A DNA stretch of 61,525 bases, filler included, from Diploschistes diacapsis (taxonomy: Eukaryota), in assembly GCA_023645945.1 (NCBI GenBank). It is 6 parts of 6 records of this genome, joined end to end, with 100 filler letters (N's around TTAATTAATTAA, not from the genome) between each part and the next. Parts side by side here need not be neighbours in the genome. Positions count along the whole stretch, not along the records: positions 26,101 to 55,016 come from JALAIB010000140.1; 5 more parts are not named here. The stretch is one strand, 5' to 3'. The notes beneath the pieces are model-generated. The model saw nothing but the letters and a program-made list of their open reading frames with translations. It was not told the origin of the DNA and did not search any database. Each line of letters opens with the position of its first letter. Position 1 is the first letter of the stretch. Positions 20,161-50,028 of the stretch are shown here, piece after piece. A program made the position numbers and the translations under genes.

Positions 20161-20325
20161 GATTGTCGAAGCTTAGTTTGTATCAGTTTTGAGCTTACTG
20201 ATTGTTCTATAGAGGTTCTTGCTATAGCATTAAGCTTCGAGTGCACCCTCGCTTGACAATTAATCGCTGCGGGACTGGCTATCTAGTTATAGACTATCGG
20301 CCATACAATTAAAAATGGCGGGGCG

Positions 20326-20369
20326 GACCTTTTCGAAGGTCGTGGGTTCGAATCCCAGTGTTGACACCA
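20326..20369 (+). pseudogene. 3' fragment of a type II (Leu/Ser-like) tRNA ending in encoded CCA
   Basis: GACCTT-TTCG-AAGGTC variable-arm-like hairpin, T-arm GTGGGTTCGAATCCCAG, then acceptor strand TGTTGAC, A and CCA. No matching 5' acceptor strand or D-arm was found upstream. Confidence 0.6.
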
Positions 20370-21267
20370 AAAACTCATGGTTCCAGGTTTTATAACCTGA
20401 ATTAAGCCTAATATGGCTAGTTAATCCGTTTCGTTTATTGATGATACTTAACGGACAAGAATTTCGGTCAAAAGCTACGATCGCAATAAAAAGCTACAGT
20501 CGCAAAATTATATAGAAAAAATTATGTGGTAGTTATGGGCTTGGCTTGTGTGGCTTATGTAAGAAGATCGTGGCTTTTCTGGTCAGGTTTCTATCATTAG
20601 CTTTATTTCCCCATTATGCTCGGCCTAATCTTCTGGCAGTTCTCGTCTAACGGAAAGCGACAACAGCTGTACGTGGCGATAGCGCTCATTTGCCTTGCCT
20701 GCATCTTGGTGCCCTTAGCTCCTTCGCTGCCCCTTTAATCTTCTTCTTCCAGAGCATCTCGGATCTATAGCTACCCGCAGGCTATGAGACAACGGCTCAG
20801 CAGAAGGCTCTGGCCTAGTGCGGCTGGTACACGCCACAGCTCATGGTCCCAAGCCAGAGGAGATGAAATGGAATTGGAAGAGAAGGTTGAATGCGGCAGA
20901 GGAGGTTCTGAATAGGGGTTACTTATGTTTGAGAAGACGATCTGGACGTTGTTCTCTATCCTGAACTTATGGAAGTGTACTTAAGATGTTCAATAGTCGT
21001 ATTAGTCAGTTGAATAGTCACTTTAGATAGTCTAAAGCTTCTAATTAAAGCCTTTCGGAGCTTGGAGTTATCTGTATAGCTGTACGATTATAACGCAGTA
21101 ACGCGAGGATCTTTTAAGTTTGAAACAAATCTTTCCTTCCATAATAAGGTCTGAAATGCGACACACCTCATCAACGCTAAAACTGATGTCGTAAGAGTTC
21201 TGAGATTTCAGTTGTCTGTAGAGGATGTAGTACATGTTTTGGAAATGTAGAATTCATATAACACATA

Positions 21268-26100: not shown

Positions 26101-29040
26101 GGTGGAGGTGGACTGGGGAACCGGGGGGCAAATATTAAGAAAAAAAAGAAAAAAAAGAAAAGGGGGTTAAAAAGGGTCGCGGAGGTTTTAACGTGGGCGG
26201 AAGTTAAGGAGCTGCGTTGGCTTTGGTCAGGATATACGGAACGAATGAATGAATGAATGATGAATGAGTGTGCAAAGGTTTTGGATGGAATATATACACG
26301 ACAGGGAGGATAAATAAAGGTAGGGTGGAAAGGCGACGCGCTTCCTTCTTTTCTAGTTGTTGGCAGTGCGGTTGATGATACCCGCTGCTGCTACGTATAG
26401 CTTATTTTAAATCCTGACATGGGCAATTCGTTCTCGATTAAAGATTTTTTGGTTGGAAGAGAATATATCCTCGTGCCGCGAGGGCTAAATCTGGTGGCGA
26501 TGAAGGCAGGCGGCTTTATTTATGGAGTCGTGGATTGTATCTGAAACCGTGCTGGTAACCGGAGAAGAAGGATCAGAGGGGGGGATGTTTACTAGGAGCC
26601 ATATGGGTACAGATAATAGAAAAAAGAAATAAAAACTACGAAACGGATGGATATGTCACTAAATCTTTATGAACCATACTGCGACTTTAAATAAATTTAT
26701 TATAGTGCCCAACAAGACGTATCTACTATCGAGGCGCTGATGGCGTTAAGCACTCGAATGCTGGCAGAAATTGGGCAGATAGCAAGCGTCATGCAGCTCG
26801 GGTGGCAACTTCCGGAGATATTGATGTATGATCACGAGCTCAAGTAATAGAAGTGCGATCATGGAGTCCGCAGGCGTTGCTGATGAAAGGTGACACGAGA
26901 AGAGGATGCAGACACACGACCTAGAAAACGGACAGAAGCAGGGCACGAAGGGAGCAGGTGATTGGAATGCTTTACAGACTCGCTTCCGGGGAGAATCATG
27001 GCCAACGAGAGATCCGTCCATGTCTGCAGTTATCCGGAGACTCTGACACGGTTGGCATATTTGGCGATGGGTGAAGGTCTCGGCAGCTGTTTTCCTATTC
27101 ATGGCTTCATACATGTGGAAGAGCTCCACGGCATTCCACATCGTCCTAGACCTCTTCAATGCTCTGCCCAGACGGCCAAGTGCTAGCTGAACAAGTACAC
27201 TTTTCTGTGCAATTCTTCGAATTCGAAGAAAAGCCTTGATCATGTCTCAGGAGTACAGAGTCAGGAAGTTCTCCTTAAGACCCCCTGCTCCCGGTGATCG
27301 GCGCGGCAGGCATCCGCGCTTTGACCTCGACAGCGACTTCGAATATGGAGCTTTAACAACCCAGGTCTGTAATGACTTACCGTAGTAGATCGTACAAGGA
27401 TATGTGGAATTTTGTTTCAAAACCACCTTGGGTCGATAGGCTCGTGGCTGGTCAGCCTGTAGTTTACTAAGAAAACTGCGCGGATGAAATCCTATGCTCC
27501 TGGAGAGTCCGCATTGACGTAGCTTAGCATCACAGCATCGTGGCGAGATGGTGAATAGTATCCTGAGATGAGGTCCACCGGCACATACGTACCAAAATCA
27601 TGACCTCTTGTTCCGGTATCTGATAGGGTCTACAGTCCACAAGAGTCCTGGCCGATCCAATCCTATCAGCTATACGACGAACAACTCGATAAATGAGCTA
27701 CTGTTATCATAAGCACTGTTATCATAAGCGGCTGGAACGTCAGCATACCTTTTAAGTGAATATCCAATCGATGATCCAGTCGCCGATGTCCGAGACACGC
27801 TTGGGCATGCACCCACCCAGCTCGCCAATGCTGATGGTGCAGCATCCGCCATAAGCTGGACATAAGCTGGCCAGCCCCGAGAGCCTGCAGGTAGGCGGCC
27901 GTTGCAATCCGTCGTCTATAACAAAGGACAATCCTGGAAAGTTTTATAAACATGAAGCGGAGTATCGCATCCGGAACGCCCAACTTGCCAAGGGCGTCGG
28001 ACAATATGCTTGCAAGTGCCCTTGCATCGTGCTCTCTAAATATTTGCAATATCCCCTCAAGTCATTCTTGCGTCTTGGCACTTAAGGCATGCAGGACTCC
28101 CACGGTCCACGAAGATCGGAGCCTTAAAATTGACGATTGAATACTGACTCTGAATGCATCCAGTTGCCGCCTCGTGATCAGCAGCCTCTCGCATATTCAG
28201 CAGATCCAAGATCCAAAGCGTCATCCCAAAATGCTTCAACTCCACCGCCACGCGACGCACGCCAACTCAACTACTGCCGAACGTTACTTCTAGTTCCCAT
28301 AGCCTCCAGTTCGTTGCAATAACCCCAGTCCAGGAGCTTCCTCGGAGTGGAGACCAGTCTATCGAACTAGTCCATTACCGACCAGAAAACCGTATCGAGG
28401 ATAGATAAACGGCCAGTTGCTCCGTGGCGCAGCTCTAGCTGCTAGGCTCTCAGAATGCTGACCTCTGGGCCATGTGTCGGTGACTTGGCATGACAGCAGC
28501 CTGAGCAGCTGTAAGGTTTTTACCCGGATGGCCACAGCTGAGTGGGTCGTCGAGACTGGCCTCAGTAGCTTTGATGAACATGGCAGCACCTCGTCCAGAT
28601 CGGGTAGCCTTCCCGCTATCCAAGCTGCTCTTAGTGGCTACCTGGCCGTAATGCGCGAGTCATCGCGAGACTGACGGGTAGAGGAGCCTATGCCGCGGAA
28701 CCAGCCTCGATATCCGCGTCGTAAGTATCTATTAGTCGCGGCTGCTCAAGAGGGCCAGAGCTAGTGGAAGTAGTGTTAATATACGCTCTTCATTCAAGAG
28801 TTGGCGACAACAGAACCGTTTGAAAATGACATTGGCCGTTCTTGATGCCGCTTGTTAACGGTTGAGTCACATCGTGCACTTGCGGCGAGCTTGAGTGCCG
28901 TGACGGACTCATGAACCAGGTCGGCGCTACAGTGCATCCACACAGTTTTCTGTGAAGGTTACACGATCAAGCCTCGCCAAGCGAGTCCCGGATTGTAGCC
29001 CGACCTCGCATCCCCACAACCTTTTTTCTCTTCTTTTTCC

Positions 29041-42643: not shown

Positions 42644-43734
42644 ATGTTCAGACCAGCGGCTCATGTATCTCTCCGGCAGTCGCTCCGGGCAGCACGCCCT
42701 GCGGTAAACCACCGTTTCGCAAGCACAGCGCAACCGCATCTCAGACCACGGAGCTGGAGGAGTTTAGCCGTTAGATGCGGTATTGCGGGCGCAGGAATCT
42801 ACTACTACAACACTAGCACTTTATTCGCCGATGAGCCAGCCTGTAAGTTCTGCACTCCATCCTATTTGATTGTTCTTACCCCGGCATAGTGTTACTCGAC
42901 GATGAATCTCCCGAAGAAGACTCTAACCTTCCAACTCTATCCTCGCTCTCGCCCTCCTCTCGATTCCGGCCACCAACACCGGAAGATAAGCCTACCACAC
43001 CAGTCACACCGTCTTCGTCCTCTCCACCTTCGATAGACCCCAAGGCTCCTTCGCCGACCCCTTCCGTCGACCCATCGCCTAACGAGGCCGATCCGTCCTC
43101 TCCAGAAGGTCTCAAAGAGGAAGCCCACCAGCAAGGCGCCTTCAATGAAGAGACTGGTGAGATTAACTGGGACTGCCCCTGCTTAGGAGGCATGGCGCAC
43201 GGCCCCTGTGGCGAGGAATTCCGGGCCGCATTCTCATGCTTTGTCTACTCAATGGAACAGCCAAAAGGCATGGACTGTATCGACCGGTTCAAGGGTATGC
43301 AAGATTGCTTCAGACAGCATCCCGACGTTTATGGAGCGGAGCTAGATGAGGAAGACGAGGAGGCCGCAGCTTTGGAAAACGGTGCAGGGGCAGCGGCAAC
43401 CCCGGCGCCTCTACCGGAGGATGCGCCAGGTACTGCGGCTGCAAAGGGCACATTGGCGAACCACGAGGCTGCGAGCACGCCCGCGGCGGAAGACTCGGAA
43501 GCAGCCGGCAGTGGCATAGCGGCTGCGCAGCCGGTAACAGAGGGATCACAAGCGAATTTGAGAGAACGAGTCGCTACACAGCCAGTCACCGGAGCTGTAT
43601 CATATTCCAGCGAAAAGAAGTCGATATACGACGGCGAGGACGAGAGGGGGACGAAGCCCTCCCCAGGAGGCCGGGACGATGACGAGCTCGTGCCAAAGGC
43701 GGCCCATGACGCGACGGGTTCAAATAAGAAGTGA
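42644..43734 (+). CDS. mia40: Mitochondrial intermembrane-space oxidoreductase Mia40, 2 exons
   Basis: Presequence and TM segment, then [29 protein letters not shown]...[12 protein letters not shown] (CPC plus twin CX9C). Confidence 0.96.
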
Positions 43735-44419
43735 AGAACGGCCCGGAAATATGATTTACTGGCGTTGAACAATACAAAGACAGATCGGTAGACCACCAGG
43801 CATAGCGTCGAGAAAGTTCCTTGCATCCACGGTGCCTTTGCCGGTTCTCATGTATAATTTTAGATTGGGAAAAAGACAGGCTGTGCATTACGATATGTAC
43901 ATAGAGTTCATTACTCAAAACCCTCTCCGCTACTTATCTATCCTTTAGCGCGATCCTTTGAAGTACTCCACAAGCTGGAGTCTTGGCTCCGGAACTGCTG
44001 AACAGGTAGGAAAGCTCCGTCCCATGTTTTGGTTAGCGTGTGAGTTTCAGTGCACAGCGTTCACCTGATAGAAGCCTTATATGAGCTTGCAAAGCGCGAC
44101 CGAGACAGCACACTCCAGTCATAGGACAGCGTAGCCGAAGCCTCATCGCTAAGCAATAACATATAGGCAAGGCGTTCAGGCGCAAGCAGCACCAACCACT
44201 TCGCTTTCAGCCTTTCCTTTCCGCACGAATCTTCTCCGTCACCTCTGTCACTGTCGTTATCTTACTCTATCATTCTTGTCCCTGTCTCCACTGTACTTCA
44301 AAGAAGGAATGCACCGAAATCTCCCAAGCCATGTCTTCTTTGCTAGCATCATGTTCATCTCCTCGAACACGCTCACTATTCTCTTTACAATCTATTACAC
44401 AATTCCCTCTTACCACCTC

Positions 44420-44546
44420 AGCCAAGTTAGCTAGTTCACCATTCCAGGTTCTGCCCTGGCCCGATTCGTGACTTCCCTTGAAGGAAGTCATAGCTGGCGG
44501 TCGACACGAGGTTCGAAACCCTGTGGAGGCACCCTTGGCTTTTTTT
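44420..44546 (+). ncRNA. Putative Pol III structured ncRNA, unit U1
   Basis: AGCCAAG (44420) pairs with CTTGGCT (44534) as a terminal stem. Consensus B-box GGTTCGAAACC at 44510 sits in a hairpin. T7 terminator. Internal helices are GTTAGCTA/TAGCTGGC, CCAGG/CCTGG and GTGACTTCC/GGAAGTCAT. Confidence 0.62.
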
Positions 44547-44708
44547 GGCCTTTCATTGGCCATTTCTACTTCTTTTTGGTATGATACGAGGGTTGGATTT
44601 CTTCCACTAGATATCGGAAGCAAAAGTGCGCAGAATCCCCTTCTACCTATCTCAATGCGCCTTTTCACGCTTTTCGGTCCCTTCTCATCACTATTGTCTT
44701 CTTTATAT

Positions 44709-44825
44709 AACCAAGATAGGGGACTTCCAGATATTCTTGTACTTACATCCCTATCTAGTAGCAGGAAAAGTAAAAAGCGGCCGAAGTGCGCGTTCTAGCC
44801 TGCACAGAGGCAGCCCTTGGCTTTT
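44709..44825 (+). ncRNA. Unit U2 (degenerate copy)
   Basis: AACCAAG...GCGGCCGAA-GTGCG[CGTTCTAGCC]TGCAC-AGAGGCAGCCCTTGGCTTTT. The 3' half aligns with U1 and U3. The TATA abuts the body, suggesting a deletion. Confidence 0.45.
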
Positions 44826-45013
44826 CCCCCACCTCTTTCTGTTCCCCTTTCCTTCTCTATCCTTGTGCAAGAGGGCAATCTGCTTCTGTCGGTTTCTGAA
44901 CTTCGTCAAGTACCAACGTTTATTAGCTTTACTTCATTGCATATTTTCTCGCGTTTAGTTTTCCTCTGACTACTATTCTCCTCTTATATGACGAGACTGA
45001 CTGTCACCACCTC

Positions 45014-45133
45014 AGCCAAGTCGGCAAACTCTCATTCCAGTTTAGTACCCTGGCTGGTCCTAATTGCCCCTTTTCGCAATAGTTGGCGGTCGACGTAGTG
45101 TTCGAGGCTGTGTAGAGGCGGCCTTTGGCTTTT
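45014..45133 (+). ncRNA. Unit U3
   Basis: Full-length paralogue of U1 (ACCACCTCAGCCAAGT...CATTCCAG...CCCTGGC...TGGCGGTCGAC...GTTCGA...GAGGC...TTGGCTTTT). TATAT at -29. The same helices are kept with different bases. Confidence 0.6.
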
Positions 45134-45629
45134 CATTTTATGCCATCTTTTTGCTTTGCATCCGTTGAATATAGGAGCGAGGAAGTGCACAGATGCTTCT
45201 TCTATCCAAGTCCGCCGCGTCCTTTCACGCCTGATCGTACCCCCGCGGGTACCACATCTGGCTTGCATGGTACGGTGGGCAGGCAGAGTGTTAGCGAAGT
45301 GAGGTGTACTCACCTCAGAGATATGTACAGCACTGTAGGTGATAGCGCACAGGCGATTGTTACGCATCTCAAAGGTTCACTCCGTGTGGGCGCGCTCTGA
45401 GCTACAGTCTCAGTTCTATTGTTCCTTTCGTGCCTATGCCTGAGAATGGAACTTGCTCTCCTCTATCAGAATTACTGCGCGTTAGTCTTTTTACAGTCTC
45501 TGGTACCAGTGCGCCTTCGCCCTGCTAAACAACTCCCTCCTTTCTCCGCTTCCAGAAAACCTCCTTCCCAATCCTCCAAATTCAAAATTAAGCGAATTCT
45601 ATATATCCCGCAACAACCCCGTAAATCTC

Positions 45630-45793
45630 AGCCAAGTAACAAAAGACACATGGCGGACCACAGCCAAGGCGTTCTTACCCACTCAACACGGGAAAATATC
45701 TCCTCGGTACTAGCCCACGGAGTCTGAGCCTTGCCCTTGGTACCGGCAGGAGATGATATCGAAACTCGCCGTAGGCTCCTTGGCTTTTTTTTT
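45630..45793 (+). ncRNA. Unit U4 (long variant)
   Basis: TATATAT at -30. AGCCAAG at 45630 with a second copy at 45662. CGGC..GAG/CTCGCCG hairpin carrying ATATCGAAAC, then AGGCTCCTTGGC and T9. Confidence 0.55.
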
Positions 45794-46131
45794 GCTTTCT
45801 TTTTTGCACTTCTTGGCACAGGCGCCGCGTCTATGTTTCGCTCTGTCGAGGAGCTTAAGCTATGGATGGCCTGTGCGGATGCAAGGAAGTAGGCACATAC
45901 ATGTGAGAGGAGATACGCGGTCACCATCTCCCACTAGCGAAGGAAGCGGTGTCTTTTGCAGGACAGCTAGGTAAACGCAAAGAAAAGGCGAAGCTTGTAG
46001 TTTCTCTCATGACCTCTTGATCCTCCTCTCGCTTTTCTTTGTCGCTGGGTTTGGATACTTCTCTCAAAAGTCACTCAGTCAAGCCTCGCAGCTATCAAGG
46101 TTTATAAAACTAAAGAAGATCCATGGTCCTC

Positions 46132-46232
46132 AGCCAGGTTAGCTGACACGAAAGGCTAGGCGCCTAAATCTCTTGCTTGCAGACTACTTGGGGTTCGATT
46201 CCCTACGTTGCTTTCATCCTTCTCCTTTTTTT
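46132..46232 (+). ncRNA. Unit U5 (short variant)
   Basis: TATAAAA at -29, CTCAGCCAGGTTAGCTG head, consensus B-box GGTTCGATTCC at 46192, and T7 at 46226. The terminal stem is weak. Confidence 0.5.
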
Positions 46233-47370
46233 GCTCTGTTTCTGCCGTCTCATGTTTTCGGCCAAGGCTGATGATTCTTGAAAGAGCAATGATGTCGCTG
46301 TATTGGGAAGGGGAGCCGTGGTACTTGCCTGTGAAACTATGAATTTGGTGGGAGGAAAGGGAGATGGTGTCAAAGCGTGGATAGGTCTGTGCGGACAATG
46401 GATATGAAAGAAACTCTAGACATGCAAATCCCGGATCTCGATATTTGCGCACTCGAGCGTTGGCCATATAATTACGTATTTCGTAGGGGCCGGCGGAGGT
46501 TTTAGCGATAGCCTATAGATTCTCTATAAAGATATTGCCTTTTTTGGATTAGCGCTCTTTGTATCCATTTCCCGCTTCATCAACTTCAATTTCGAACCTC
46601 CTCGATGCTAGTATGAAAACTTCATCTCCCGTGACCGCAACGTATCTTGTGCCACCCATTGTCAAAGAGCAGCTTCTCTTTTATCTCTCAGACCAGACGC
46701 GACATCCATTTAACATCGCGCTCAATCCGTCTCATCACAAGCATCCACTCACCCTACCCAAGTCAGTCACAGCTTGGCTTACATCTATCCCGTTTATCCC
46801 AGCCTAACGCTTTGGCTAGGGCCGAGTATCATCAATTCAGCAACAGCAGCGGCGCCATCGTTTGTTCGCCATGATCGTGACAGGGAGAAGAGAACGGCGC
46901 TAGTACTAAAGCAGTAAGAGTTGTGCTAACTCAGGGGCTAGAAGGTACCACCCTTGCCACCATACACAATCAACTATGCCAACAATAGCGTCCAGCGCAG
47001 CATCAATGAATCTCAGTGCCCGGAAAGCCGAATTCATCCTGATTCTACATGACAGATCTACCCGCGGAAGTGCACCATCAGGCTCAGCTCCCCCGGCCTT
47101 GCCTTGCCGTCACTGGTGTGGTTTCGCTATATATATCAGTTTAGTTCAATACTGGCACAATCCAGTATTGTTGGTCTTTTGGCTATGTGGCCTAGCAGTA
47201 CTAAACTGGCGCTTTGCAATATCGCACTGGCGCACCGTGGATCGATCGTGACTCATACACACCGTCTTCCTCCGTCTTACCTTCTTAGCTTGTCCAACCA
47301 CGCTCACTCGCTCTTATCCCCCATCCCATCAAACTCTCACTATTATACATAAGTTGTGAGCAATACCACT

Positions 47371-47495
47371 AGCCAAGTTAGCTGGATTAGATATGGTTAT
47401 GTCCTCTTCTAACTCTACCAACCAGGTAAGTTGCTTGAAGGGGACTAGAGGGTTCAATTCCCTTGAACTGCGGCCTTATGCTGCGCTTGGTTTTT
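47371..47495 (+). ncRNA. Unit U6
   Basis: TATTATA at -30, ACCACTAGCCAAGTTAGCTG head, B-box GGTTCAATTCC at 47451 inside a GAGGG/CCCTT stem, then CTTGGTT and a T5CT4 tract. Confidence 0.6.
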
Positions 47496-50028
47496 CTTTT
47501 ATCTGCTTATCTATTGTTTTCATGTTTGTAAGGGTATCGGGGATTTTATGTGCTCAAAGAACGACGGCAGGAAGGTAAGCAGGTGTATAGTAATATATGA
47601 TTTGCGCATTCCTTCCTGTGCTCCAGTTTTGATTGCATCTCGCGTTCTTGTTTCCTTGAAGCCACATCAATTATCTGCCGCGCTGCTTCCAGTAATTGTC
47701 ATCGGAGCGTTGCTCTTGTTTTGGTACGGTGAGCTTCATCCCTCGCTCCACTTGGGACGTCAACGTCAAGGCGAACTCGGACTTGAGCACAGAATCTACA
47801 CGCAGGCCCAGATCTAAAGACAAACACGCACACAGGGCGCGGACTGGGATTTGTACTAAGAGCTGACCGGTGTCGACACACCGCCGCTCTACAACCCAGG
47901 TTAGGACAACAACCCTATCTTCTACCGTCTATCTACCGTCCACCGTCCCGCCCCTCACTCTATCATGTACTCGACACTAGGCTATATCACTCCCCCTCCC
48001 CCCACATATTTACCGTGACCATTGCACTTCCTATCTCCTATATTTCCACCTCCAACCCGCTGTTTAGTCAGCGCCGTTGGCGAACGGTCCCATGTACAGT
48101 TCTTCGTTCTTCATCCGATAAGGGTATCGTTGTCTTCGTACAGGTGTATGCTACGCGTCCACGTGCATACAGTACAGCACTCAGGATGATGCCTCATGAG
48201 TTTAGCTCACGGGTGTCAGCGTCTGCTGCCAATGGACTGAAGTACATGTATGGTACATGTATGTAAGCACGGGCTGAATGCGGACCTGTTATAACAACCA
48301 CTTTAACGTATCACAAGCCCTTCTCTTTTCTCAGCTCAGCTGTTGGGACTCGGAAGAAGTGCGGGCAGTCTCACCTCGGTATTTGAAGGGGAGGAAACAC
48401 AGATTAGAGATCCCGTCAGCCATTCTACTGTGCCGGAAGGGCCGGGATCCCTTTTTTGGGTGAGAGTACTGTTTGGATTGGAAGAGATATCATTGTTCGG
48501 AGGGAGCGAGGTCTGGATGAACCGTCGCTGGCTGGTGGGCCTGAAAGTCCAGGCCGACGGAGGCTCATTCTGGATGCTGGTCCGACATCCGCACATGTAA
48601 CAAGGAAGGGCATATTGAAGACGCACATGCTTTGGAAAGGAGGATGTGTAATCCATTGCTCTCTGCAAAAGTACGCGTCATATCTCTCTTAGTAGTCCTT
48701 CTTACACAAAACAGCACGTCCACGCCTGTACCCTAATATCATTTCCACCGAACAATCTCAAGCTTCGTCTACCTCCACCTTCCCTCCCCCCGCCTTCTCT
48801 ACCTAAGTTCCCCCGCTTCACCCTCGCCAGTGCCCATCTTCAAGCCTCCTCAAACTCTCATTCCCACACCGTTACTCCCACTTTCTCCACCCCCAGGGAG
48901 TGAACATACCCCTTCCCCGCTCCACCAGCTGCACCCCTCAGCGCCTCATCCTCCCCCAACCCATCCTTCTCCCGGCGCCCCCTTCTCAAAAAAGACCAAT
49001 ACCACGAACACCACGGGAGCACCACACCCACCAGAAGCCGCTGCGAGCTCAAGGGAGTTTGCTATCCACCACCCATAGCCAGACCCACCCTCACACTATA
49101 TAGACACCGAAACCAGCCCCAGCACCCCAGCCAAGCCCACAACCGAACCCGGGCTCGAACCCTCTACCCGCCAACGACGACGACGACGACGACGACGATA
49201 ACGCAGCCTGCAGTAGCGGCCGCGCCCGCCATTCCCGCCGGAGTTCCCTTACCGGTTGTACCTGCGGGGGTCTGCGTATGCGTCTGTGGGGGAGAGCAGT
49301 TCCGTTGACGGGGACGCTGCCCCGCAGGTGATGGTGAGGGGTGAGGAGTGAGGCGATGGGATTTCATGTTGTTATTCACCTGCACTTTAACCCTCACCCG
49401 ACGGGGAACAAGAAAAAAAGGAAAAAGGAAAATGCGTTATAGGAGCACCTTAAAGCAAACGCAAAATGCAAATGCAAATGTAAGAGGGGATATGGACAGA
49501 GGGCAGCTCACTGCTCGCCTCCTTTTGCCTGCGGACGATGTTGATGCTGATATTTCGGGAACAAGGTTAATCTAATGGTGGGAGATGGGATGAGAGAAAG
49601 AGAAAGGGGATGAGAGAAAGAGAAAGAGAAAGAGAACGGATTGGAAGCCGGCGGATTCCTAGTGGCGTAGAAGAACGCGGTACATGGACTTGGAGATTAT
49701 TTTCGTTCATGAGGTTTCAGTGGGAAGGGTTGATAAGATGCAGACGCATCGGTGAAAGCCATCAATAAAACCCCGGAGATGGTTGCTTGTATTCTAAATA
49801 TTCGATTGGCTCGGTAGCGTTCATATAGCTTCTCGTTTTTGCTCGCTCATGCTCGCTCATTGGGATCTTGTAGCTCTATACCCACTGTACCCACGATTCC
49901 TCCAAGTCTTGCATGTCGCGTGCTACCTGTTGCAAGCTCTTACGCATAGTCAAGGCTCAACAAACGAGCAGGCGCACAAGCTCCCTACCCACGATTCCAG
50001 AATAAACCTCACGACCGCCCAACACAGA

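Follow-up and report, generated by a model that had tools for sequence, protein, structure and literature searches.

A Tandem Array of tRNA-like Units with Predicted Pol III Signals in Diploschistes diacapsis, and a Borderline Case for Selection on RNA Structure

We analyzed a 61,525-nt stretch of DNA from Diploschistes diacapsis (GenBank assembly GCA_023645945.1; six parts of six records joined end to end with filler between them, hereafter the window), in which positions 26,101 to 55,016 come from record JALAIB010000140.1 and carry an array of six small units, U1 to U6, all on the plus strand and lying within 3.1 kb (~44.4–47.5 kb). The reading that we favor, to which we assign a probability of roughly one half, is that the array consists of tRNA-derived, predicted RNA polymerase III (Pol III)-type units that arose by local tandem duplication and whose interior is probably drifting, with the claim of compensatory change being borderline. 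That claim came from a reading of the letters of U1, U2, and U3 at 44420 to 45133 (the sequence-only reading), which held that compensatory changes between these units point to selection on RNA structure and that neither neutral decay nor repeat-induced point mutation (RIP) would preserve the pairing. We find that selection on RNA structure across U1, U2, and U3 is possible, but that the tests for it are null or borderline (p about 0.03–0.16), and that the base-pair changes noted earlier are mostly one-sided transitions through G-U.

U1 and U3 stem from a tandem duplication at the DNA level, which took in the promoter and part of the spacer. Under the favored reading the ancestor would be a tRNA gene, probably Leu-like. 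Pol III would make RNAs of about 120–160 nt in which the two ends pair as a 7-bp acceptor-like stem, followed by a U tail. Promoter, terminator, and both unit ends would be under constraint, as would the B box in part, and the interior (the helix P2 and two hairpins) would drift. U1 and U6 may be seen as units that still fold well, U3 and U4 as units that fold weakly, and U2 and U5 as probable relics. The coordinates of the units and of their parts are collected in table 1.

Promoters, Ends, and Terminators

The motif (CTC)AGCCARGT stands at the 5' end of all five full units, and each of these five has a TATA or TATTA at −34 to −23, for which the background frequency in the window is 0.027. 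TATA alone occurs there in four of the five (binomial p = 1.7e-6, a count in which U1 and U3 are not independent). In U2 the TATA lies at −8, not −30. At the other border, the 3' ends of U1–U4 read CTTGGC and then T, and that of U6 reads CTTGG and then T, in each case complementary to the 5' end of the unit; U5 has no proper 3' partner strand for its 5' end. A terminal stem formed by both ends is seen in U1, U3, U4, and U6, and the changes that it has accumulated are wobble-compatible (3' strand TTTGGCT in U3 and CTTGGTT in U6; 5' end AGCCAGG in U5). All six units are followed by four or more T in a row; TTTT within 8 nt has a background frequency of 0.025. Every full unit carries a hairpin that resembles a B box or T-arm. 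U1 and U5 hold exact copies of the B box GGTTCGANNCC, and U6 holds one with a single mismatch. Since promoter position, complementary ends, and terminators are kept far beyond chance, we suggest that at least some of the units are, or once were, transcribed, and they look like real small-RNA genes on the plus strand.

The opposite strand was considered as well. The reverse complement of the 5' motif (ACTTGGCTGAGGTGGT; 44404–44432, also in U3–U6) resembles an A box at the start of a D-arm of the kind found in Ser/Leu (type II) tRNAs, and in U1 the minus strand holds a B-box-like TGTTCGAGG about 55 nt beyond this A-box-like motif. We rejected a tRNA on the minus strand: there is no tRNA fold, no matching B box in U3, and no matching T-run, and the many G-U pairs fit the plus strand only.

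Descent from a tRNA Gene

A tRNA-Leu(taa) call in U5, the T plus AGCT that follows the 7-nt 5' strand, and the T-runs together point to descent from a tRNA gene. The call is one of three matches that ARAGORN returned in 61.5 kb at a 90% threshold; it covers 46132–46213, starts exactly at the start of U5 (AGCCAGG), and uses the exact B box as its T-loop, with several mismatched pairs. An anticodon arm with a 7-nt loop is present in U5 only, and at this lowered threshold only (-ps90). A tRNA-Ser at 44477–44570, also called at the lowered threshold, was judged spurious, as it re-uses the B-box loop of U1 as an anticodon loop and joins it with a hairpin at 44546–44562. That hairpin, TGGCC-TTTCATT-GGCCA, stands directly after the T-run of U1.

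Nuclear type II (Leu-like) tRNA genes resemble the units in having a 7-bp end stem, T plus AGCT at positions 8–13, the B box in a hairpin, and a T-run. An upstream TATA is also a feature of fission-yeast tRNA genes. However, the units of the array are 100–160 nt long, and the T-arm, which in a tRNA abuts the 3' strand, is separated from it by 8–10 nt in U1–U4 and by about 20 nt in U6. Because of these extra nucleotides, and because they have no cloverleaf (a difference from nuclear tRNA genes that we record for U1–U4), U1–U4 and U6 are not tRNAs in their present form. Passages of a published study describe tRNA gene clusters and pseudogenes (PMC2888827).

Tandem Duplication and Copy Number

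The end-to-end alignment of U1 and U3 proposed by the sequence-only reading is confirmed, as is their heavy divergence (75 of 119 aligned positions identical). Similarity does not stop at the borders: it begins 45 nt upstream of the unit (29/42 identical), where it takes in the TATA region, and it returns downstream in a pair of homologous spacer blocks (table 1). Homology that runs through promoter and spacer indicates that U1 and U3 are DNA-level tandem duplicates of a segment larger than the unit and not retroposed copies. Moreover, the two units are no more alike than the two spacer blocks, so that an identity of 63–68% needs no special constraint. The two spacer blocks share the strings AAGTGCRCAGA and TTTCACGC, and AAGTGCGC recurs in the B-box stem of U2.

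The stretch is matched with 0 differences in a public DNA run labelled lichen metagenome, and close relatives at roughly 95–98% identity occur in two further public runs, one from a coded organism and one from a rock metagenome; no RNA run was among those listed as matching. Single runs are called X1 (source-like), X2, and X3 where they have to be told apart. These data bear on the idea of a mobile-element origin, in which the units would be copies of a tRNA-derived short interspersed nuclear element (SINE) or of a miniature inverted-repeat transposable element (MITE) with the inverted ends AGCCAAG and CTTGGCT. The tRNA-like promoter parts, the 7-nt inverted ends, and a high-copy inverted-repeat element nearby are in keeping with this idea. 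However, depth across the units in X1 is 99.1, which is that of one contig, and a covariance model search of the 61.5-kb window found no further credible copy; this makes it unlikely that the units belong to a dispersed family of SINEs or MITEs. In addition, all units lie on one strand within 3.1 kb, the homology of U1 and U3 passes both unit ends into promoter and spacer, and no target-site duplication was seen in the unit flanks. We consider an origin as mobile-element copies highly improbable.

The inverted-repeat element just mentioned, about 100 nt long, lies at 47115–47232 between U5 and U6 and has the inverted ends CAGTTTAGT...ACTAAACTG. Summed contig depth in the bin 47146–47266 reaches 18,828 in X1 (flanks 99), 8,736 in X2, and 516 in X3, and the many contigs with unrelated flanks make it look like a MITE-type repeat.

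Variation in the relatives gives no clear contrast between units and spacer: among the differences listed for X2, U1 has 2–4 in 124 nt, 44598–44755 has 9 in 158, and 45257–45536 has 7 in 280. A C>T change at 44826 in relatives lengthens the T-run of U2, and in one X3 contig the tail of U5 (46211–46255) is skipped (joint 46210>46256). Just upstream of U6 (47343–47369), X2 has one more A in the TATA-like box, which then reads TATATATA, and lacks 6 nt at 47364; the spacing from box to start is altered by these changes.

Table 1. Units of the array, their parts, and associated features, in window coordinates. MFE, minimum free energy.
Feature	Position	Strand	Remark
TATA-like box TATTACA	44393..44399	+	27 nt upstream of U1
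U1	44420-44543 (44546 including T-run)	+	best-folding unit; MFE -46.1 kcal/mol
U1 terminal stem	44420-26/44534-40	+	
U1 P2	44426-33/44491-98 (register of sequence-only reading); 44430-36/44492-98 (MFE register)	+	
U1 first hairpin	44444-48/44455-59	+	
U1 second hairpin, 9 bp	44468-76/44483-91	+	
U1 GUC/GGC stem	44500-02/44528-30	+	
U1 B-box stem	44505-08/44522-25	+	
U1 B box GGTTCGAAACC	44510-20	+	exact match
U1 T-run	44540-46	+	
Spacer block downstream of U1	44593..44681	+	homologous to 45151-45242; 60/88 identical, z 7.5 vs shuffles
U2	44710-44826	+	rearranged unit; 3' domain homologous to U1 and U3
U2 B-box stem	44786-90/44801-05	+	
TATA-like box TATAT	44985..44989	+	29 nt upstream of U3
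U3	45014-45133	+	full-length U1 paralogue
U3 P2	45020-27/45080-87	+	
U3 hairpins	45037-40/45050-53 and 45063-67/45076-80	+	
U3 B-box stem as quoted by sequence-only reading	45093-98/45108-13	+	
Spacer block downstream of U3	45151..45242	+	partner of 44593-44681
U4	45630-45788 (45600-45788 including TATATAT box at 45600)	+	
U5	46132-about 46232 (from 46101 including upstream box TTTATAAAA)	+	most tRNA-like unit
U6	47371-47494 (47341-47496 including upstream box TATTATACA and T5 end)	+	

Helices Compared between Units

The alternative that bears most directly on the interior of the units is that U1–U3 encode a structured noncoding RNA whose internal helices are kept by compensatory evolution, with the linkers GCGGYCGA and GAGGC as a protein-binding surface. 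We regard this as rather unlikely, and the evidence on both sides lies in the helices themselves and in the tests applied to them. All eleven helix strings that had been quoted were found at the units named for them, and both linkers are present in U1, U2, and U3, where, in favor of this alternative, they could form GUC/GGC plus tandem G-A; at one position U2 has C-G where U1 and U3 have U-G. Three adjoining pairs of the B-box stem read AU/GC/GU, CG/UA/UG, and GU/GC/AU in U1, U2, and U3, which is likewise in favor of a structured RNA.

The equivalence of the helices is less complete than had been claimed. The first hairpin does persist, but this reflects plain sequence conservation, with one pair lost in U3, and not compensation. 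The second hairpin is present in U3 (ATTGC/GCAAT), but it has only 5 bp, compared with the 9 bp of U1, and its register is displaced by 2. A 5-bp Watson–Crick hairpin at this site of U3 arises in just 122 of 5000 plain shuffles, which supports a kept structure, but a 5-bp hairpin is also left in 8–10% of simulated decayed copies of the second hairpin of U1, which does not. The B-box stem quoted for U3 pairs, but its 3' strand is shifted by 2 relative to U1 (by our own column mapping on a sequence alignment, A3); in the homologous register the stem keeps G-U, U-G, and A-U. The string given for P2 in U3 is present and amounts to four Watson–Crick pairs, three G-U pairs, and one mismatch. Such shifted registers count against compensatory evolution, as do the P2-like helices ascribed to U5 and U6, which did not hold up: they are at chance level, with helices of equal length in 1968/2000 and 1960/2000 interior shuffles, and that of U5 has 3 mismatches in 10. 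U5 and U6, at 46.1 and 47.4 kb, lie outside the 44420..45133 interval to which the claim was attached.

Tests for Selection on RNA Structure

The covariation tests rest on two or three sequences, with G-U tolerated as a pair. RNAalifold applied to the sequence-based alignment of U1 and U3 gave −10.35 kcal/mol. For the structure conservation index (SCI), the null consisted of column shuffles that preserve gaps and conservation; U1/U3 scored 0.255, below the shuffled mean of 0.331, and the observed value was reached by 82% of shuffles. This is the outcome that the sequence-only reading had itself named as refuting it. The three B-box domains of U1, U2, and U3 had an SCI of 0.516 versus 0.448, which 26% of shuffles equalled. 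Neither value supports a kept structure. A hand-made structural alignment with an SCI of 0.56 was not used: it is biased by construction, takes the wrong GAGGC of U3 as its anchor, and misaligns the B-box arm. On the unfitted alignment one pair is changed on both sides, a result matched by 233 of 500 shuffles. In the B-box domains 84.8% of cells are paired, versus 30–64% with the partners slid, a figure that speaks for structure and that 132 of 500 shuffles match. Changed (substituted or deleted) columns are about as frequent among paired (30/78) as among unpaired positions (19/46; Fisher p = 0.85).

Structure-tolerant tests were added, since 1-nt indels are misplaced by sequence alignment. 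Folded with pairs allowed within 1, 2, and 3 columns of the U1 pairs, U3 reaches −15.9, −20.6, and −22.7 kcal/mol. A U1-type fold therefore costs U3 about 15 kcal/mol (−20.6 versus its own minimum of −35.2), and this minimum has a topology unlike the U1-type fold and a z of −0.23, a point against a shared structure. When the changed residues of U3 were permuted among the same changed columns (500 times), the permuted sequences were as good in 0.16, 0.13, and 0.09 of cases, again not in favor of selection. A second, neutral null was provided by 500 simulated descendants of U1 with the same substitution number, transition share, and gaps, and a covariance model built from U1 only supplied a model-fitted alignment, which leans towards structure. 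Of the 36 pairs that can be scored on it, U3 retains 32; both partners have changed in 4 pairs and one partner in 6. One-sided changes on the unfitted alignment comprise 6 between Watson–Crick and G-U and 4 between Watson–Crick and A-C. RIP, invoked earlier as a null process, is not relevant here because the changes between U1 and U3 comprise 23 transitions and 21 transversions.

Several results nevertheless weigh against the reading of tandemly duplicated, tRNA-derived units with drifting interiors. As regards drift, neutral descendants of U1 were as good as U3 in only 0.044, 0.030, and 0.058 of simulations (1, 2, and 3 columns), that is, U3 keeps the U1 architecture better than 94–97% of them. 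The U1-only covariance model scores U3 at 38.4 bits with structure versus 27.4 bits with sequence only, although the two models are weighted differently and the 11-bit difference is indicative only. The four double changes on the fitted alignment were matched by 28 of 500 shuffles, and its one-sided changes include 6 between Watson–Crick and G-U against 1 between Watson–Crick and A-C (p = 0.06). The two X2 differences listed inside U1 (44439 and 44466) are both at unpaired positions, and 45096 T>C in U3 (X2, also X3) turns a U-G of the B-box stem into C-G. Furthermore, the 88-nt block is the best local spacer match, and the rest of the ~590-nt period is not alignable, so that preservation of the unit exceeds that of spacer on average. 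As regards descent, ARAGORN at normal thresholds called 0 tRNA genes in the window, and 0 also with introns allowed; Rfam gave no family at gathering score in the window and, at E up to 10 in 44000–48000, no match to tRNA, Vault, or Y_RNA. Descent from a tRNA gene would thus draw on partial features and one sub-threshold call. The only Rfam matches in 44000–48000 at E up to 10 were two unrelated weak ones, of which one aligns 13 nt of the T-arm of U5 with tmRNA.

The more favorable of the structural results come from structure-fitted alignments. We conclude that some of the paired changes are real and that they are too few to separate selection on RNA structure from neutral decay. The case is instructive in that, at ~63% identity and with two or three paralogues, hand-picked "equivalent helices" are indistinguishable from the neutral decay of a hairpin-rich duplicate.

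Folding of Individual Units

The MFE fold of U1 (z −2.4, with 5 of 200 shuffles as good) is close to the model given by the sequence-only reading, namely a terminal stem, P2 around two hairpins, the GUC/GGC stem, an internal loop, and the B-box stem. P2 has two possible registers, four nt apart, because AGCT is repeated; the sequence-only reading used one and the MFE fold uses the other. U6 also folds well (z −3.0, 1 of 200 shuffles as good), with a terminal stem GCCAAG/CTTGGT, a T-arm GAGGG-TTCAATT-CCCTT, an extra hairpin at 47470–47484, and a T5 end; the covariance model gives it 7.4 bits (E 0.32).

U2 (z −1.1; 17.5 bits, E 0.007) has a 3' domain homologous to that of U1 and U3, made up of GCGGCCGA, the B-box stem, GAGGC, and CCCTTGGCTTTT, and a 5' part that is not alignable and holds ACCAAG plus a hairpin GATAGGGGA/TCCCTATC. 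Folded alone, the B-box domains of U1, U2, and U3 have z of −0.8, +0.19, and +0.15, and the minimum of U3 is a different hairpin, which is a further point against a shared RNA structure. U4 (z −1.1; 7.9 bits, E 0.22) has the 5' end AGCCAAGT at 45630, a degenerate B box ATATCGAAAC, and the end GGCTCCTTGGC plus T9. Its 5' motif is doubled, with CTCAGCCAAGT at 45627 and, 32 nt further on, CACAGCCAAGG at 45659; in the latter copy the 5' end falls at 45662, and the covariance model prefers this copy as start. U5 has an exact B box, GGTTCGATTCC, and folds worse than its own shuffles (z +2.1).

These differences between units bear on the possibility that the array is a row of dead tRNA-gene relics that makes no functional RNA, with the motifs being TFIIIC/TFIIIB sites (for example at a chromatin boundary between adjacent genes) or the slowest-decaying remnants. 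We judge this quite unlikely. It would account for the state of U5, which has no 3' partner strand, folds poorly, and has lost its tail in one X3 contig, for the displaced TATA of U2, and for the folds of U3 and U4, which are no better than shuffles. It is also in line with a metagenome scan for a three-part pattern, which gave 28 loci, none with more than a 16–32-nt blastn match to U1/U3 (E 3.8 or worse), and thus no outside homologue. However, TATA position and T-runs are kept where the flanks no longer align, the complementary ends are kept in U1–U4 and U6 although the interiors are unalignable, and the folds of U1 and U6 clearly surpass those of their shuffles.

Comparison with Known Systems

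Tandemly duplicated, tRNA-derived units of the kind that we propose have partial counterparts elsewhere. Fungal tRNA-derived SINEs such as the AfuSINE2 families are described, in passages of PMC5063351, as having a tRNA-related 5' part with internal Pol III boxes, and in this they resemble the array. Unlike the array, SINEs are dispersed, multi-copy, and bordered by target-site duplications; the array is a single locus at single-copy depth, tandem and co-oriented, and its homology extends into promoter and spacer. The TMERs (tRNA-miRNA-encoded RNAs) of murine gammaherpesvirus 68 appear, in passages of PMC4337559 and PMC8223928, as tandem Pol III units of tRNA-like form that take no part in translation, and the array is likewise a tandem row of tRNA-like, Pol III-type units. 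TMERs differ in being viral and in having a tRNA-like part followed by microRNA hairpins, whereas the array belongs to a fungus and its extra hairpins are enclosed by the terminal stem.

A further comparison is with the vault and Y RNA clusters of animals. These are paralogous Pol III genes of about 100–150 nt with a TATA at about −30, the vault genes with an internal B box, and in both kinds of RNA the end stem is conserved and the middle diverges fast. The array matches them in being a small cluster of paralogues of similar size with a TATA at about −30, a conserved end stem, and a diverging middle, but it has no sequence or Rfam match to them, and neither family is known in fungi. By analogy, the array may be a lineage-specific family of tRNA-derived small RNAs in a lichen-associated ascomycete, with their own Pol III promoters, in which, as in vault or Y RNAs, the end stem, the U tail, and a T-arm-like hairpin would be conserved and the core would evolve freely. 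At least U1, U3, U4, and U6 would then be expressed and serve, bound to protein, as a scaffold or decoy, and the conserved GCGGYCGA/GAGGC stem would be one of the sites of binding. We put this forward tentatively, as an unlikely extension of the favored reading.

If the units are expressed, they would represent a rare fungal case of a tRNA gene becoming a small family of new Pol III RNAs, and 3 kb would then hold neighboring paralogues that have diverged and decayed to different extents. On the present evidence, the array is a tidy but ordinary cluster of tRNA-derived genes and pseudogenes. In full-text search listings and the opening parts of abstracts, nothing was found on such arrays in lichen fungi.

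Locus and Further Observations

The DNA of the window is fungal: the long frames in it match Pfam families that include Sey1/RHD3, LMBR1, and RPN5/PCI, along with other eukaryotic families. The array is bounded by a CHCH-domain gene that ends at 43734 on one side, and on the other it ends at about 47.5 kb. A coding reading of the units was set aside: a Pfam scan of six frames over the units gave nothing above threshold, the longest stop-to-stop frame (174 aa) is on the minus strand, and the indels of 1 and 4 nt between U1 and U3 break any frame.

Elsewhere in the window, a fragment like the 3' half of a tRNA lies at 20320–20372 and has an exact B box, GGTTCGAATCC, at 20345, with no tRNA called there. 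A B-box-like palindrome, GGGCTCGAACCC, is found at 49151, and a run of GAC triplets at 49172–49198 closely follows a TATA-like motif and a stretch rich in A and C.

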